Shown here: piece after piece, positions 18,178-53,035 of the stretch
Position numbering within the stretch: position 1 is the first letter of the stretch
Layout: every line of letters starts with the position of its first letter
Source of the DNA: Lachnospiraceae bacterium
GTDB taxonomy: Bacteria > Bacillota > Clostridia > Lachnospirales > Lachnospiraceae
Reading direction: 5' to 3'
Length of the DNA stretch: 64,000 nucleotides
Assembly: GCA_014804795.1 (NCBI GenBank)
Contig: JAAUZC010000022.1
Location: forward strand, 2,117 to 66,116
Position numbers and translations under genes: made by a program
Notes under the pieces: generated by a model
Told to the model about the DNA's origin: nothing
Seen by the model: the letters and a program-made list of their open reading frames with translations, nothing else
Databases searched by the model: none

Positions 18178-19056
18178 CTATAAAAGCGCTTTCTTTACAA
18201 CAAGCACTTTCGCAATCCGCCTGTTTTCCACTTCCAGAATCTGGAACTCATAATCACCCACCATAATAGAAAATTCTTCGTTTTCTTCCGGAATTTTGTC
18301 CATTTTGGAAATCAGGAAACCATTTAGTGTATCAAATTCTTCCTCCTCAAAATCAATATCAAACCGTTCTTCCAACTCTTTCAGTTCCGACATGCCGTCT
18401 ATGACATATTCGTCCTGTCCTTTTTTCTGAATGTGGCTCTCTTCCTTATCATACTCATCCAGAATATTGCCGACGATTTCTTCCAGAATATCTTCCATTG
18501 TCACAAGTCCTGCCGTCTGCCCATATTCGTCAATTATGATCGCCATCTGTATTTTTTTCTGCTGCATCTCCTGAAACAGCGTGTCAATTTTTTTCTTTTC
18601 CGTTACAAAAAGAGCTTTTCTGAGCAGATCCGGAATATCTTTTAAAGCCATTTTCCGGTTTGCCGCAATCCGGTTCATGCGAAATGCATCCTTTAAATAT
18701 AAGATGCCGATAATGTGGTCAATGTTTTCCTCATAGACCGGAAATCTGCTGTTAGTGCCGTCCAACATATAATCTAACGCTTCTTTTAACGTCATATCCG
18801 CTTCGATTGCGGCGATCTGAGAACGATGTGTCATGATATCCCCGGCTTCCTTGTCGTTCAAGGCAAAAATGTTGGAAATCATCTCGGCTTCATCGGCCTC
18901 GATCGTTCCTTTCTCCTGCCCTTCACTGACCATCGTTAAAATATCCTCTTCAACCTCCTGCGCATTTACGCCACGTTTGCTGCCCAGTCCCTTTTTTACT
19001 GTTTTTAAGATGGTTCCCAGCCTGAAACCATCAGGGTTTCCATCTGCATCTGCCAT
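18178..19056 (-). CDS. CBS-pair + CorC/HlyC domain protein (no N-terminal DUF21 membrane domain)
   Basis: IMTHRSQI, SRFPVYEENIDHIIG, IIIDEYGQTAGLVTMEDILEEIVG, DTLNGFL. Confidence 0.85.
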   Translation of the reverse strand: MADADGNPDGFRLGTILKTVKKGLGSKRGVNAQEVEEDILTMVSEGQEKGTIEADEAEMISNIFALNDKEAGDIMTHRSQIAAIEADMTLKEALDYMLDGTNSRFPVYEENIDHIIGILYLKDAFRMNRIAANRKMALKDIPDLLRKALFVTEKKKIDTLFQEMQQKKIQMAIIIDEYGQTAGLVTMEDILEEIVGNILDEYDKEESHIQKKGQDEYVIDGMSELKELEERFDIDFEEEEFDTLNGFLISKMDKIPEENEEFSIMVGDYEFQILEVENRRIAKVLVVKKALL

Positions 19057-19281: not shown

Positions 19282-19623
19282 CTAAGAAGTCAGTTCAAGG
19301 CTGATTGCCAATGCTTGATCTACCCGATGCATCATTTTGTCATCCAGGTGACATACTCTGTCTTTTAACCGCATCTTATCTATTGTTCTGAGCTGCTCCA
19401 GCAAGATTACCGAATTCTTCTCCATCTGGTACTGTTCTGCGCGAAGCTCTATATGGGTCGGAAGCTTCGCCTTGTTTTGTCTCGATGTGATCGCTGCACA
19501 GATGACCGTCGGACTATGTCTGTTTCCTGTATCATTCTGCACAATAAGTACCGGTCTTACACCGCCCTGCTCGGAACCCACCACGGGTCTTAAGTCGGCA
19601 TAGTAAATATCTCCTCGTTTCAT
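19282..19623 (-). CDS. mazF: MazF/PemK (EndoA-type) endoribonuclease toxin
   Basis: [47 protein letters not shown]...KAKLPTH...[10 protein letters not shown]; start ATG 19623 after GAGGTG; no antitoxin ORF upstream. Confidence 0.93.
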
Positions 19624-19735
19624 GGGCACTCACCTCTTGAAATTTTCCTGCTGCTTTTTTACTTTGCAGGTGATATTTACAGTATTTCCCGTGGCTTTTT
19701 TTTCATACACAAAATATCAAATTTGCTTCTGAAAT

Positions 19736-24891: not shown

Positions 24892-26655
24892 CTATATCGC
24901 ATCTTTCTCTTTCGGCGAAGCATTTAAAACGATAAAAAACGGAAACGCCGCCATAACAGGATACAGATAACGCAGTTGCACCGTAGGTCCTAAAAACAGA
25001 GTCAGGTAATAACCAAATACCAACATAAGCGGAATACATTTTGCAAATTTTCTGTTGATAAGCAGCCATCCTGTAAGCAACAGATAAAACCAGAACCATA
25101 CCCCGGGGACAAATAAATATTTCAGAACCGGATACTTTAAATAAGCATTGTCATTTGTCCATTTTTCCATCCGTTTCATAAGTCCGGGCCATTTGGAATC
25201 TTTGTATATTCCCCGTTCATTCAGAGTCAGCTCGTCCCATCTCGTCTGTACATAACCGCCTCCTGCCTCCTGCCCCTCCTGCGCATTAATATAAGCATGG
25301 CTCACATCTCCCGGGTATAGATAACCGGCATTCACTGCCAGCGCAGCATTCAGGTAATCACCCGGATACTGGAAAAACAGGCCCAGATAGGTGGATAGGA
25401 AATCTTTCGCCCTGTATCTTGCCACATAGGTGTTTGTATGGCTTTTGACAGGATCTGCAAAATCCGGTCTGTAATCCCGATAAGCTTCCTCTAAAATAAA
25501 GTCATTGATCAGCGCCCTGTCAGTATCCGACATAGTGCCATCGTCCTCCGGCATAACACTAACACCACCATGATAAACCATTGTTCTGGAGAGCTGTTGA
25601 ATGGGGAGGCTGAGCATCTCCCTCTTGTCCCCCTGCCCGGCACTCACTGCTCTGAAAATTCCGGACAACGCCAGATTTCCGATAAGGAAAGTTCCTGCCG
25701 CCAGAAAGAGTACTTTTCCCCAAAAAATTCTCCTCTCCTTTCCAAAAATAACTGCAATAAGTATAAAAAAAAGAAGGACAAGAAAAGCATATTTTCCGTT
25801 ATTGCGAAACAGGATCACTCCTATGCCGGCAAAAATGAATAACGGCACATAGGACTTGCGCCCATCCACAATTTCCCAAAGAGCTGACAGAAAAAGCACA
25901 AAAAAGGCGCTGAATATTGTATCTTTTGTCACGCTTATGCTCATATACTGATGAAACGGATAGAATATACAAAATAGCTGCACCAGAAACAGCCATATCC
26001 TTCTCACCTGATGTCTGTGCAGACAATACACGCCGAAGGCAAATGCCGCGGCAAGAAACAACATTTGAAACAGCGCATAACAGCCGATTCCTGTGTTGAC
26101 ACTTCCAAACACCGTTTCCCCAAGCCACATGGTGCCTTTTAACAAAAGCGTATGGGCAAGAGGATGATGGTCAATATACATGCCGGAAACAATCTGCTCT
26201 GTCTGAACCGGTATATCATATGCGCAGATGGCAGGGTAATATGCCAAAAAGGCGGGAAGCCAGGCTAAAAACTCGAAGAGCAGTGTACCCAAAAACACGA
26301 TCCACGAACTTTTTCCATCCGCCCTTTTCCAGAGCAGACATGATATTCTTCTGAAAGCCTGGTCTTTTTGACCGTTCGCATTTCTTTTGTCCTCGTTATA
26401 CATATTTACTGTGTTGACAGATTTGGCCCATCTGTAAAAAAGCAGGCAGATCAAAAATCCCAACGCTCCGCCGACAACAAAACTGATTCCCAGGATCTGA
26501 AATGTATGTCCCGCTGTCCATAGAATATTTCCCTCTGCAGCCAATTCCCGTCCCGTCAGCAGACAGAATATAAAGAAAAAACCTGTCAACCCAAATATGG
26601 TATATGCAATTGGTTTTGAAAGCAATCTGTTCTGTTTCATTTTTTCCTCATTCAT
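24892..26655 (-). CDS. DUF6020 family polytopic membrane protein (possibly GT-C-like)
   Basis: 587 aa with many TM helices; YDIPVQ..DHHPLAHTLL, TKDTIFS, LFRNNG, PTVQLRYLYP; start may be ATG 26640. Confidence 0.7.
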   Translation of the reverse strand: MNEEKMKQNRLLSKPIAYTIFGLTGFFFIFCLLTGRELAAEGNILWTAGHTFQILGISFVVGGALGFLICLLFYRWAKSVNTVNMYNEDKRNANGQKDQAFRRISCLLWKRADGKSSWIVFLGTLLFEFLAWLPAFLAYYPAICAYDIPVQTEQIVSGMYIDHHPLAHTLLLKGTMWLGETVFGSVNTGIGCYALFQMLFLAAAFAFGVYCLHRHQVRRIWLFLVQLFCIFYPFHQYMSISVTKDTIFSAFFVLFLSALWEIVDGRKSYVPLFIFAGIGVILFRNNGKYAFLVLLFFILIAVIFGKERRIFWGKVLFLAAGTFLIGNLALSGIFRAVSAGQGDKREMLSLPIQQLSRTMVYHGGVSVMPEDDGTMSDTDRALINDFILEEAYRDYRPDFADPVKSHTNTYVARYRAKDFLSTYLGLFFQYPGDYLNAALAVNAGYLYPGDVSHAYINAQEGQEAGGGYVQTRWDELTLNERGIYKDSKWPGLMKRMEKWTNDNAYLKYPVLKYLFVPGVWFWFYLLLTGWLLINRKFAKCIPLMLVFGYYLTLFLGPTVQLRYLYPVMAAFPFFIVLNASPKEKDAI

Positions 26656-26723
26656 GGGCTTTCACCAAGGAGCCGAAAGATAATACTCTATATAAATCGA
26701 GTATCACAAACAAACAAGTATCA

Positions 26724-26861
26724 GAGCAGTGCCCGCTCGTAAAACCTGCGGTTTTCCTCGCTCACGGGCGTTCGCCCTATGGAAAAAGTCAGATAAAATC
26801 TGCTTATGTGCAAGCACAACGCATCTTTTATCAGTCTTTTTCCGCACTGCTCATTGCCTAC
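26724..26861 (-). ncRNA. Structured four-stem leader RNA candidate, copy B
   Basis: Outer stem GAGCAGUGC/GCACUGCUC, 18-bp hairpin (16 pairs), GGGC-GAAC-GCCC, AAAACC-GCA-GGUUUU; same 5' sequence and junctions as copy A; +1 predicted at 26861. Confidence 0.65.
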
Positions 26862-26867
26862 GTGGAC

Positions 26868-26896
26868 ATTATAACACTTCATTTCCAAATCGGCAA
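26868..26896 (-). promoter_or_regulatory. Sigma-A promoter firing into leader element B
   Basis: TTGCCG (26891-26896), 17 nt, TATAAT (26868-26873), TG extension. Confidence 0.72.
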
Positions 26897-27061
26897 ATAC
26901 TCTTCGCACATTCTTGACAGTTTTTGCTTTCCTTAGTAAACTGGTTACTGTCCGGGACAGGCATAGAACATGTTTCGCAAAGGATTCTTATTCCGTCAGA
27001 TTCTTTCCGGCCGGAAATATGCGGGACTTCTTTTTCAGATAGACAAATGAGGTACACCACA

Positions 27062-34717: not shown

Positions 34718-37700
34718 TTACGCTGCGCTTGGATTTACTTTCCTGTCTTTCTTAAGGAACAGCACTGCTGAGAACAGTGCAAGCCCCACTGCCAAAAACC
34801 ACTTCGGATGGATGGCATCACCGGTCTTCGGTGTAGCGTCAAAGGCACCATCTGAAAGATTCGCCGTATCAACGTAAACAGTATAAGGTGAGAAATGTGT
34901 TGCCGTAAAGGTTACACACGGCACACCGTTTACTGTAGTAAATCTTGCATTCAGTTTATCCAGATTATTTCCGCCGATTACCGCTCCCACCTTGTTGTTT
35001 CCGGCATACTGGCGCAGTTCATCCGGTATGGGCAGAGTTATCGTTACGGAAAGTCCGCTGGTATCTGTTATCTTTGTCGTTCCGGTCTCATCATACAGCG
35101 AAATATCCATCGCAAAATAGTGAATATTTTCTAAATCGCCATACTCATTCCGGAGCGCCTCTGCTACCGCAGCCGTAGCCTGCCCGTCTTCTGTTACTTT
35201 GACAACAAAGTTATCTGTAGAACCGTTTACTGTTGCAGAAGCGACAGTGGTATCTGAAATACCCGGTCTGCTTACTTCTATGGTACTGCCGCTGTTACTG
35301 CTGTTGCCGTCACCGTTGTTTCCGCTGCCGCCGCTATTGCTGCTGCTCACAGAACCTGTGTTGGAAGACGGCGCAGAAGTGATAGTACCTTCTGTCCTTC
35401 TCGACGTAATACTGTTGCCCGTCTCGCTCTTCGTCCTGTAGTTTGCCGTAACAGTCAGATTTTTAGCCGGCATCTTAAAGGTTGTCGCCGACATTGTCTT
35501 GCTGGCAAAGTTTGTATCTTCTTCCGAAGAAGTCCAGTTATAGAACTCATATCCGGTATTCGGATCAAACGCAGCGATCACTACTGTAGTTCCCTCCGCA
35601 TAATCACCGGAACCGGAACCGTTTACAACAGTGAGGGTGTATAACGGACCATTGGAGTTATTGTTATTATTGTCGCCATTGTTTCCGCCATTCGGGTTAT
35701 TCGGATCATTATTGTTCCCGCCGTTCGGATTGTTCGGGTCATTGTTATTCCCGCCGTTCGGATTGTTCGGGTCATTGTTATTCCCGCCGTTCGGATTGTT
35801 CGGGTCATTATTATTCCCGCCGTTCGGATTATTTGGATTATTTGGATTATTCGGGTCATTCGGATTATTTCCGCTCGTACCACCGTTCAAATAATCATAA
35901 CTCGCCATAAACATTACATTTCCGGTAATGTTATTCATCTGAATCTCACCTGCTCCGTCTTCTTCCGGCACAGAGATCCAGCCAAGGAATTTGTATTGTT
36001 CACCTCTGTAAGATGTCGGGGTTTTCGGCTCCTCCGCAACTCCGCCGTCCAACACCTCACGTTCCACGATCAGTTTCAGGTCATCATTCACAAACCGCAC
36101 TGTCCATGTTACCGGCGCCTCATCCGTATAAGTTGCCTGCACATACATGTCTTTTACAGCCGGTGAATATCCGCCCGGAAGCCATTTGTCAAAATACATT
36201 CCCGGATGCTTTGCCAAAAACGGCGCAAGCTCTTCATCTGTAGGAGGAACTACATCCTGCCCCTGCTGAGCAATCACTTCTTTAATCACTGTTCTGCTGT
36301 CATCATCCAGGAAAGTGATCGTATAAGAGGGAAGAATTGTTTCATTTCCCGGTTTCCAACCGTATTTTACGTTTGTATTCATCAGCTTCTCTGCAGTGCT
36401 GCCCGCCGGACATGTCACCTCCACATTATGTAATACATTATCTTCATCATCGCTGCTGTAAAATACCTTATTCGTCGGAAATCTCACATTGCTGTTCACC
36501 ACACGCAGGCTTTTCAGATTGGTATCCTTCAAAGAATAATCCTCCAGCTCTCCGCAGGCAAGCGGCAGCTTCAGCTGCGTCAGGTCAGAAGCATTTGCAA
36601 AACAAAACTCCGGTATCTTTTCTACATTTGTATTGGTCAGATCAACCATGACGATCTGCTCGCAATCCATAAATGCTTCAGGATAAATTTTGGTTATGCC
36701 CGCAAGTTCTTCGGGTCCTACCATCATAGAACCTATGTTGCCGCCTCTCTCCACCAGACACTCCACAATGGCATCCCGCTGGCCGTTATTCCCTTCATAG
36801 ATAATTCCGTCTTTGCATGAGAAATTTTCGCCTGCAGTACCGGTTCCGGGCGTTGTGCTCTCTCCTGTGAAATATACAGCATTCACACCCGCATCATGCG
36901 CAAAAGGTCTGATGCCCATCTCACTCGTTGTGTTCGGAATTGTAACACTTTTCAGATTTTTGCATTGACCAAAAGCATAGTTGCCGATGCTTTCTCCATT
37001 TTCCGCATTGGAAGGATACATCACCACGGTTTCCAACGCCTCACATCCATAAAATGTGTAGTCATCCAGTTTCTCGATATCACGCATAGTGATACTGCGG
37101 AGATATTTATTAGCAAAATCAGCATCTTCCGGAATCGCTGATGCATTTTCAGCAACATCTGCCGCTTTTACAGTATTCTCATCATTAGCCTTGGAAAACA
37201 GTTCCTTTCCGATACCCTGGATACCGGTCGGCAGCGTAACATCAATAGCTGACAGAAACGCTGCTGTCACATTCGGCGAGTCAGTCGGTACCGTTTTGTC
37301 GGCCAGATACGCCTTAGCAATTTCAGTAATTCTCGCATTAATTCCGTTTTCACCATCTATAATAATGCTGCCATCCGCGTTATTGTACCCTCCAGTACTG
37401 ATCAATGCTTCCTTTAATGCCTGATAATATTCGTCATCTTCACTATATGTTACAGAAGATTCCCCGGCCTCTATCGCAGCCTTAACCTTATTCATTATAT
37501 CATCCGCTTTCGGTACACTGCATACGATGCGCTTACCCGTCTCTGCATCATACTTCACGTGGATATTGGTAGGATTCCCGGAAGAAAATTCAATATGAGA
37601 CACCGGCTGGTCAGGACTATTATAGGTATTTTCCGGATCCATCGCATACATAAACGGACCGGAATTAAAATCAATATTTCCGACAAAAGTCAATGTTGTC

Positions 37701-40960: not shown

Positions 40961-41019
40961 ATCCAACATTACGACAATTTTCAAAAAACGCTGCAAAACA
41001 GACGGATGATTGCCTGAGT

Positions 41020-41693
41020 TTACAACGTTTTTGGTATAGTATTTATGTGTTTTTTCTTCTCCTCCTCAACCTCTTTCTGCAGTTCCTCTATCATATAATG
41101 TATTGTATTCCTGTCTAATATCCTCAATGCTTCCGAAAACATGTTTAACACCTCCTCCGGATTCTGCCTCAGCATAGCTATCTCTTTATAGATCTCTTCC
41201 AGCCACGGGTACTCCTGTATCAATTTCTCCGCATCTTCCAGATCTTCCGCAGCCAGCAAAGACAGCCATGCCGTCTGTTCACTCTTTTCTTTAGCATAAG
41301 GGAATCTTCTGAAAACGTCAAGGGTGACCAGACAATATTCCTGCAATAATTCCAGTTTCAGCCCTGTGTTAAAAACTGTTTTTCTTCCCCTTCACCCTTG
41401 CATACTGCCGCATCACAAGGTCTGAGGAATAACAGGACATACGTTCTGCCGGAAAAGCGTAACTCTGCTTCTGTATCTCAATGTTGATCAAAGACCCATC
41501 TTCTACTTCTCCCAATAAATCCATGATCAAGAGCGTATCTCCATCCATCATGCTGTCCTCATTCGGAAGAACACGGACAATCTTTACATCCATCCCCAGC
41601 AGGCTTGATACCAGCCTAGACAACCGGTCCGTATGAATATCGGGATGGAATATCCGCTTAAAAAACGGATCATTTTTCCACTGATTTATTCAT
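41020..41693 (-). pseudogene. Degraded Rpn / PD-(D/E)XK nuclease family (putative transposase) gene
   Basis: Frameshift after ATG 41693; core DPFFKRIFHPD...MDLLGEVEDGSLINIEIQKQSYAFPAERMSCY; then internal deletion/frameshift into KTVFNTGLKLELLQEYC...; C-terminal 108 codons (41020-41346) open. Confidence 0.85.
41023..41348 (-). repeat. Direct repeat copy 1 (326 bp; copy 2 at 52710-53035)
   Basis: Ungapped alignment at offset 11687; 16 substitutions counted by eye. Confidence 0.93.
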
Positions 41694-52664: not shown

Positions 52665-53035
52665 TCATTCAATTAAACCGTTGAAAACAAATGGGTAATC
52701 CGATGTTTTCAACGGTTTTGGTATAGTATTTATATGTTTTTTCTTCTCCTCCTCAACCTCTTTCTGCAGTTCCTCTATCATATAATGTATTGTATTCCTG
52801 TCCAATATCCTCAGCGCTTCCGAAAACATGTTTAACATCTCCTCCGGATTCTGCCTCAGCATAGCTATCTCTTTATAAATTTCTTCCAGCCACGGATACT
52901 CCTGTATCAGTTTTTCCGTATTTTCCAAATCTTCCACAGCCAGCAAAGACAGCCATGCAGTCTGTTCACTCTTTTCTTTAGCATAAGGGAATCTTCTGAA
53001 AACGTCAAGGGTGACCAGACAATATTCCTGCAATA
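52665..53035 (-). pseudogene. Isolated 3' fragment of an Rpn / PD-(D/E)XK gene (direct repeat copy 2 at 52710-53035)
   Basis: LQEYCLVTLDVFRRFPYAKEKSEQTAWLSLL...KKHINTIPKPLKTSDYPFVFNGLIE*, about 95% identical to 41023-41348; no nuclease core upstream. Confidence 0.85.
52675..52718. other. Perfect 15-bp-stem hairpin at the cassette boundary
   Basis: AAACCGTTGAAAACA / TGTTTTCAACGGTTT. Confidence 0.8.

Follow-up and report, generated by a model that had tools for sequence, protein, structure and literature searches.

A multi-copy four-way-junction RNA element at or beside RNA 5′ ends in Lachnospiraceae

Two copies of a structured leader in the window

The 64,000-nucleotide stretch of Lachnospiraceae DNA analysed here (the window) carries on its minus strand a gene for a DUF6020 membrane protein (24892-26655; Pfam PF19484, E = 1e-33), preceded by a structured leader element, copy B (26723-26865, minus strand). 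The ORF begins at 26655. A better-placed ATG at 26640 has GAGGA upstream and matches the start of an identical 582-aa database protein; it is the likelier start codon. Depending on which start codon is used, the gene begins 67-84 nt past the element, close to the 70-85 nt given in the first-pass annotation. That annotation had also proposed a TTGCCG-17-TATAAT promoter. In a consensus scan, we found this promoter on the minus strand at 26896-26868, with a −35 box TTGCCG (26896-26891), a 17-nt spacer and a TG-extended −10 element, TGtTATAAT (hexamer 26873-26868). Further upstream, the block CGGACAGTAACCAGTTTACTAAGGAAAGCAAAAACTGTCAAGAAT (26910-26954) is near-invariant in five orthologous loci and includes an inverted repeat, GACAGT...ACTGTC; the divergent ABC-F and DUF6020 promoters probably share this block as an operator.

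Read in the direction of transcription, copy B begins with the 5′ tail CACG (26864-26861). According to pair counts, its CAC (26864-26862) is the pseudoknot strand that pairs with the GUG of J3/4; its G (26861) is the canonical +1. A single-stranded linker, UAGGCAAUGA (26860-26851), follows and corresponds to near-invariant alignment columns with the family consensus nnRGCAAUGAG. The closing stem P1, identified from fold, model and covariation, pairs GCAGUGC (26850-26844) with GCACUGC (26732-26726). In copy B, the 5′ strand is lengthened to GAGCAGUGC and the 3′ strand by UC, yielding the 9-bp outer stem GAGCAGUGC/GCACUGCUC (26852-26844 and 26732-26724) that the first-pass annotation had described. 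P1 is 6-7 bp across the family and this extension is a minority variant. P2 (26843-26781) is a long, variable hairpin with a G(CUUG)C cap and two-sided changes in all 16 modelled pairs. J2/3 (AUA, 26780-26778) and P3 (GGGC-GAAC-GCCC, 26777-26766) were invariant in all copies found, in a region whose sequence was fixed by the search pattern. They are followed by J3/4 (GUGA, 26765-26762), whose pseudoknot pairing with the tail covaries, and by P4 (26761-26735), a helix of the form N-CGAG...CGAG-N′ with covarying N/N′ and tandem G·A pairs close to its base. The four-stem fold of copy B has an MFE of −56.9 kcal/mol and a z-score of −4.5 relative to shuffled sequences. The remainder of the leader (26723-26656) includes a promoter-like TTGTGA-18-TATTAT (26709-26680), part of which aligns with the short leader of an orthologue that has no element (locus L242, see below).

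We then searched the 64-kb window, with filters off, using R1, a covariance model built from 60 family members. The search returned exactly two copies, copy B at 123 bits and copy A (19231-19093, minus strand) at 125 bits (124.6); the next match scored 11 bits. Copy A follows the promoter TTGACT-17-TATCAT (19262-19234, minus strand, sequence scan) and lies 36 nt 5′ of a CBS/CorC_HlyC gene (18178-19056, minus strand; Pfam PF03471 and PF00571). It has the same plan as copy B, and the z-score of its fold relative to shuffles is −8.2. The tail, P1, J2/3, P3, J3/4 and the base of P4 are common to the two copies; P2 differs wholly in sequence, yet is paired in both. The earlier observation that the copies share their architecture and their orientation to the downstream gene was thus borne out in promoter, four-stem fold and spacing. 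A sequence scan found no intrinsic terminator between element and gene for either copy. These data support the conclusions that copies A and B are homologous copies of one structured RNA element and that each is transcribed from its own predicted promoter, jointly with the downstream gene. Other features of the window include a PemK/MazF-type toxin ORF (19282-19629, minus strand) that ends in a strong terminator (19302-19269) directly 5′ of the copy A promoter, a 300-nt direct repeat (41018-41317 and 52705-53004, 11.7 kb apart, 94% identity) and a 33-nt tandem array (35679-35877), possibly a repetitive protein-coding region.

Four homologues of the DUF6020 protein (67-70% identity; loci L241, L242, L248 and L250) are encoded in the same neighbourhood as in the window, with a divergent ABC-F gene on one side and DUF6020, MscS and Rex genes on the other. 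The copy B promoter is conserved in the five orthologous loci, L242 included, and the leader is kept in four of the five. Those of L241, L248 and L250 scored 115-123 bits, and their P2 has been rewritten, in two different length classes. In L242, the −35 and −10 boxes are the same and the element is absent. With mutual identities of 64-70%, the five proteins are about equally far apart, which leaves the direction of change unreadable. The first-pass annotation had suggested checking whether orthologues retain the leader, and took a general lack of it, together with a lack of co-regulation of the two genes, to indicate recent selfish insertions. On the DUF6020 side, the syntenic set runs to the contrary: because four of its five members keep the leader, the leader is old at this locus, prone to turnover and no recent insertion. 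Homologues of at most 61% identity (L243-L247, L251 and L252) had no leader within the fetched flanks, which extended up to 1.5 kb on each side of the gene. These homologues lie inside GT2/PMT_2/acetyltransferase clusters, never as the first gene, a context that suggests that DUF6020 is a glycosylation-related membrane protein.

Covariation of the fold and the pseudoknot

RNAalifold predicted P1-P4 from 60 members, with compensatory changes in 23 of 31 pairs. We also aligned 85 distinct sequences to the model. In this alignment, paired cells amounted to 92.3%, as compared with 68% in shuffled alignments and 32-46% when the partners were slid. The covariation score was 0.56, versus 0.15 for shuffled alignments and at most 0.11 with slid partners, and two-sided changes occurred in 24 of 34 pairs. 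In P1, columns 23-178 are A-U in 54 sequences and C-G in 23, and columns 24-177 are G-C in 71 and A-U in 7. The N/N′ pair of P4 covaries as well (G-C 43, C-G 25, A-U 14), and L010 and L012 have Watson-Crick pairs in place of the tandem GA of this helix. P3 was invariant in all copies found but was fixed by the search pattern, which makes it uninformative either way; an unselected copy, L053:1341, retains P3 via a G-U pair. The paired columns held 90 G·U and 11 A·C combinations (p = 1e-16). This asymmetry indicates that the fold is that of the sense-strand RNA, not of an antisense RNA or a DNA cruciform. Together, these data show that the element is a four-way junction of P1-P4, ~135 nt in length, formed by the sense-strand RNA, in which P1, P2, P4 and the pseudoknot are supported by covariation.

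The linker columns are nearly invariant, and the element has ~22 conserved unpaired nucleotides. In a mutual-information scan, the known helices, apical pairs of P2 and P4, and the pseudoknot emerged, with no further long-range contact. Several more specific motifs were considered and rejected. A K-turn in P4 is not consistent with G·A pairs that are flanked by Watson-Crick pairs on both sides, lack a 3-nt bulge and are Watson-Crick in some members. Pairing of the tail with the P2 loop (GCAA/UUGC) was discarded, as the loop varies (CUCG, CUGG, CUAG and others) with no matching change in the tail. A leader peptide starting at the conserved AUG of the tail would span 7 codons in copy B and 24 in copy A, and some members have AUU or ACG instead. 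On sequence inspection, the conserved segments are out of the order required for a hammerhead-like core. Finally, mimicry of 16S rRNA helices 15-16 was rejected, as blastn-short against the 16S gene of a host genome returned chance 7-13-mers (E ≥ 0.6).

The pseudoknot joins the first bases of the element, CAC or CGC, to GUG or GCG at the P3-P4 junction. Among distinct sequences, the pair at columns 3-124 is G-C in 37, A-U in 27, G-U in 11 and another combination in 4. Copies with GCGA at J3/4, retrieved in the second of the scans described below, have the tail CGCG or sometimes CGUG; barring two tails offset by one base, none has the mismatching CACG. When the remainder of the element is compared, 14 of the 37 G-C forms are closest to an A-U or G-U form. 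The G-C forms are therefore interspersed among the others and arose repeatedly, not as one clade. Similarly, the copy at L062:83-218 has a P2 near-identical to that of L040 and differs from it at both pseudoknot positions. The pair was A-U in 48, G-U in 16 and G-C in 12 of the promoter-bearing copies, and A-U in 18, G-C in 20 and G-U in 3 of the promoter-less copies; A-C occurred in neither set. When paired, the three tail bases would lengthen the P3 hairpin to a quasi-continuous 7-bp helix.

The pseudoknot bears on the transcription start of copy B, which the first-pass annotation had placed at 26861. This position is the canonical choice by spacing: 7 nt from the −10 box, the +1 is the G after CAC, and the pseudoknot bases fall outside the promoter-initiated RNA. 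By contrast, we take CAC (26864-26862) to be part of the RNA because the pseudoknot covaries. The true 5′ end is thus probably 1-3 nt upstream of 26861; failing that, the pseudoknot would be confined to read-through or processed RNA. C1 and the next purine make up a Y-R start dinucleotide, which is compatible with initiation 1-3 nt earlier. RNA runs with related loci contained assembled contigs only, which span the region and are uninformative on transcript ends.

Distribution, placement and downstream genes

The family comprises upwards of 240 loci, nearly all from Lachnospiraceae among the matches listed. An exact pattern for the P3-J3/4-P4 core, run over one genome per species, yielded at least 120 loci (scan 1), and screening metagenomes for copies whose J3/4 has a base other than U at the second position of GUGA yielded at least another 120 (scan 2). 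Hosts in scan 1 included, among the matches listed, Coprococcus, Roseburia, Lacrimispora, Hungatella, Enterocloster, Acetatifactor, Cuneatibacter and others. Cultured carriers include Cuneatibacter caecimuris DSM 29486 (L116), Enterocloster aldenensis (L102), Hungatella effluvii DSM 24995 (L094) and Lachnotalea sp. AF33-28. Several genomes contributed at least three loci each, and a second, independent copy occurs within the 8-kb loci L062, L064, L053 and L066. As a rough estimate from locus density, a genome has one dozen or a few dozen copies. A few matches fell outside the group. One, L079 (12-98), is in a MAG assigned to Bacilli incertae sedis (Candidatus Onthocola), and three others are in MAGs assigned to Bacteroides. 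These four are confined to short contigs or contig edges and are probably mis-binned Lachnospiraceae contigs. Only one match was found in 2.9 million viral contigs, and a phage origin was accordingly dropped. Searches of the literature by name, topic and literal sequence found no description of the family. It is apparently a large, undescribed set of cis-encoded structured RNA modules in Lachnospiraceae.

Some loci contain tandem whole or partial elements with periods of 59-125 nt (L116, 3045-3502; L035, 2195-2402; L061, 5562-5769; also L111, L103 and L118). The closely spaced pattern matches at such loci, which might be read as CRISPR-like or simple tandem repeats, proved to be duplications of whole or partial elements, and these are real in isolate genomes too. 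In L116, from Cuneatibacter caecimuris DSM 29486, four 115-nt units of 92% identity lie 5′ of a gene read as a MoxR-type ATPase. The arrays of L116 and L061 repeat chiefly P3-P4, their later units having no tail; L035 repeats complete mini-units that lack P2, each with its own CACG tail. The arrays could reflect redundancy, protein titration or plain slippage. Mini variants lacking P2 also occur in L092 (3623-3703) and L068 (7082-7162) as a three-way junction with tail, P1, P3 and P4, indicating that P2 is dispensable for the core.

The position of the element relative to RNA 5′ ends is regular. A −10 hexamer with at most one mismatch precedes 75 of the 107 copies with unique context. In 68 of these 75, 2-3 nt separate the end of the box from the first C of the tail; the TG extension is present in 56. 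Many of the other 32 copies adjoin the U run of a terminator or the 3′ end of a tRNA. The element directly follows a T-box terminator in L124 (1982-2400; tyrS), L135 (4797-5176; pheST) and L138 (4644-5071; a met-type ABC transporter), and the 3′ end of a tRNA in L021, L086 and L113. The latter two are rRNA operons (L086, 1-2530; L113, 1666-6936) with the unusual order 16S - 5S - tRNA - element - 23S. There, the element begins 4 nt past the discriminator base of the tRNA and precedes CCUUGAAAACUA, which we read as boxA-like. In L008 (4801-5340), the element is followed by a cobalamin riboswitch (106.7 bits) and then an intrinsic terminator. All downstream ORFs of at least 120 aa at this locus are on the opposite strand, and the transcript may be a riboswitch-controlled non-coding or antisense RNA. 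Overall, these data show that the element sits at or beside an RNA 5′ end, after a −10 box, a tRNA or a T-box terminator, and that it is co-transcribed with whatever lies downstream.

The nearest downstream gene is co-oriented with the element in 67 of 78 cases and opposite in 11, at a median gap of ~80 nt. With its sense-strand covariation and its co-orientation with and closeness to the downstream gene, the element has the properties of a structured cis-acting 5′ leader in the generic sense. The downstream genes have little in common. Sixty-six of their products matched 108 Pfam families, of which the commonest, PFK, accounted for 4 proteins only; other products include PGK, an aminotransferase, AsnRS, FtsH, RNase R, RNase E/G, NifU, TrkA and RsmD. 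The first-pass annotation had recognized the two downstream genes of the window as unrelated but both plausibly envelope- or ion-related, and had suggested that they may form a small regulon defined by the RNA. The incoherent cargo across the family, which further includes 23S rRNA and a cobalamin riboswitch, rules out such a CorC/DUF6020 regulon. Because the element also precedes 23S rRNA, it is not a translation device. Of 71 leaders, one had a weak terminator-like hairpin with a U run in the stretch from the element to the start codon; no obvious sequence that would sequester the Shine-Dalgarno was noticed on non-systematic inspection of the leaders. A metabolite-specific riboswitch was also rejected: there is neither a terminator-type platform nor a coherent gene set, and the leaders also house real riboswitches. 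Any regulation by the element would be genome-wide, and a constitutive role at the 5′ end fits better.

Related RNAs and candidate functions

We compared the element with known RNAs. At gathering level, no Rfam 15 family covered the element in the window or in 50 family loci. In permissive scans, the single, sub-threshold match was that of copy B to Clostridiales-1 (RF01699), which aligned end to end at 31.1 bits (E = 6e-5 in a 601-nt search), below the gathering score of 48. Copy A did not match RF01699, nor did nine other members at E ≤ 1. Weinberg et al. (2010, PMC2864571) rated Clostridiales-1 as likely to be an RNA, with neither a cis-regulatory role nor a switch function. Both RNAs have gut Clostridiales hosts, and both form a four-way junction that is closed by a 7-bp stem and comprises a long hairpin with a GCUUGC cap and two more stems. 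By contrast, the P3 of the Clostridiales-1 model is about 46 nt, versus 7 nt in the element, and the junction sequences differ. Moreover, it is the element family that has a conserved 5′ tail and a pseudoknot and is consistently found upstream of genes. Clostridiales-1 is thus the nearest Rfam family in topology, but fails the score test. The aptamers of SAM-I and cobalamin riboswitches resemble the element in size, in their four-way junction with a pseudoknot, in conserved junction nucleotides and in 5′-leader position. Unlike these, the element lacks an expression platform and a functional theme among its genes, and it can stand on one leader with a genuine riboswitch.

In Firmicutes, RNA decay often begins at an accessible 5′ end, through RppH, the 5′-to-3′ exonuclease RNase J and RNase Y, and a 5′ end without an unpaired overhang is a classic stabilizing feature. 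Known 5′ stabilizers of mRNA in this phylum include the aprE leader hairpin, the SP82 stabilizer, the STAB-SD of cryIIIA and the processed T-box leader of thrS. They resemble the element in being 5′-terminal structures with little or no unpaired overhang that act independently of cargo, and the thrS stabilizer acts just 3′ of a T-box leader, as the elements of L124, L135 and L138 are placed. However, these stabilizers are single simple hairpins or Shine-Dalgarno-like and are gene-specific, whereas the element is a 135-nt junction with a pseudoknot and has many copies per genome. A proposed analogue, with no sequence similarity, is found in the exoribonuclease-resistant RNAs (xrRNAs) of flaviviruses and plant viruses. 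These are compact junctions, often duplicated in tandem, whose 5′ end pairs with nucleotides of the helical junction; the covarying pseudoknot provides the same feature in the element. xrRNAs act without ligand and are indifferent to the downstream sequence. They differ in lying in viral 3′-UTRs, in being three-way junctions and in having a proven ring topology that halts Xrn1.

The reading to which we tentatively give most weight, on sequence data, is that the element may act constitutively, as a module, to protect the RNA 5′ end or to define it. In the proposed mechanism, a transcript or processed RNA would begin at the tail of the element, and its first nucleotides would base-pair into the compact junction via the pseudoknot. 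The 5′ end would thereby be hidden from 5′-end-dependent decay, including the action of RppH and RNase J and the entry of RNase Y, and the downstream RNA would be stabilized or its 5′ end defined, constitutively and without a switch. This model is based on the RNA 5′ end that all contexts share, be it a start site, the 3′-processing cut of a tRNA or the single-stranded, U-rich stretch of an antiterminated T-box, and on the selection, in each of them, of the first bases of the element for pairing with its core. Protection of the 5′ end would also explain why the −10 box is as near to the element as a promoter permits. On the other side, the later units of L116 and L061 have no tail, L242 has no element and the canonical +1 excludes CAC. 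In addition, ~22 conserved unpaired nucleotides seem to exceed what a simple roadblock needs, and would suit a ligand, a protein or catalysis.

Those same nucleotides, with the junction and the pseudoknot, form an aptamer-like conserved core. They are in keeping with a second, rather unlikely reading: a global regulatory leader, either an aptamer for a general signal such as a second messenger, an ion or a nucleotide pool, or the site of a global RNA-binding protein, controlling one large regulon. The several copies per genome and the repetition of P3-P4 in arrays, which recalls protein-titrating RNAs, are consistent with this, but the near-absence of terminator-like hairpins, with no obvious anti-Shine-Dalgarno noticed, leaves such a leader with no expression platform. 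Its cargo lacks functional coherence, and copies stand before 23S rRNA and beside T-box and cobalamin riboswitches, by which those transcripts are already controlled.

Less probable again is a processing element, either a self-cleaving ribozyme or a fold whose 5′ boundary is cut by an RNase (P, III or Y). Cleavage would shield the downstream RNA from upstream transcripts or free a stable ~135-nt RNA acting in trans. Such cleavage would account for the sharp 5′ boundary beside tRNAs and terminators, for the tandem mini-units of L035 with a CACG tail each, and for P2, a long duplex that is near-perfect in the inspected copies and resembles an RNase III substrate. A pseudoknot spanning the boundary would suit substrate recognition. 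However, mini variants do without P2, no known ribozyme family in Rfam matches, and a free small RNA would have no terminator at its end. Cleavage would also serve no purpose in most copies, which begin at their own promoter.

We consider it improbable that the element is a processive antiterminator that modifies RNA polymerase, like put of phage HK022 or EAR, to resist pausing and Rho-dependent or intrinsic termination. A promoter-proximal, orientation-dependent and cargo-indifferent element that is present upstream of 23S rRNA and sits after, not before, T-box terminators is compatible with such a function. Nevertheless, it would defeat the intrinsic terminator of the cobalamin riboswitch downstream in L008, a single counter-example that argues against this function. 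The rRNA spacer, moreover, already has its putative boxA-like sequence after the element, and the pairing of the extreme 5′ bases would have no obvious role.

Similarly improbable is a selfish repeat, MITE- or Correia-like, that spreads and is tolerated in 5′ UTRs without service to the host: its multiple copies, its presence or absence at an orthologous promoter, the different P2 classes at orthologous loci, the tandem duplications even in isolate genomes and a P1 that looks like a short terminal inverted repeat would suit it, but a plain repeat of this kind fails on the orientation bias, the fixed promoter spacing and the RNA-level covariation. Specifically, P1, P4 and the pseudoknot covary, whereas a transposase site would conserve sequence, and the excess of G·U over A·C points to selection on RNA. 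The near-absence from viral contigs also speaks against a selfish repeat, as does L242, which retains its promoter, so that the promoter was not brought by the element.

Lachnospiraceae are among the most abundant commensals of the human and animal gut, and their RNA biology is barely explored. The element is a well-defined candidate for a new class of functional RNA: 135 nt, with strong covariation, multi-copy, located at RNA 5′ ends and below the thresholds of Rfam 15. Annotation pipelines miss the family, and the genes that carry it, including the two in the window, should not be taken as an ion or envelope regulon. It is possible, though doubtful, that the element represents a reusable "5′ cap module" on ~10-30 transcripts per genome, including mRNAs, pre-23S rRNA and riboswitch-controlled RNAs, or else a new class of ribozyme or of aptamer for a global signal. 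If it binds a ligand or a protein, its targets would make up a very large post-transcriptional regulon. If 5′-end protection is true, the element would be the first dedicated, reusable stabilizer fold in bacteria, a bacterial counterpart of the viral exoribonuclease-resistant RNAs and a portable expression part for anaerobic Firmicutes.
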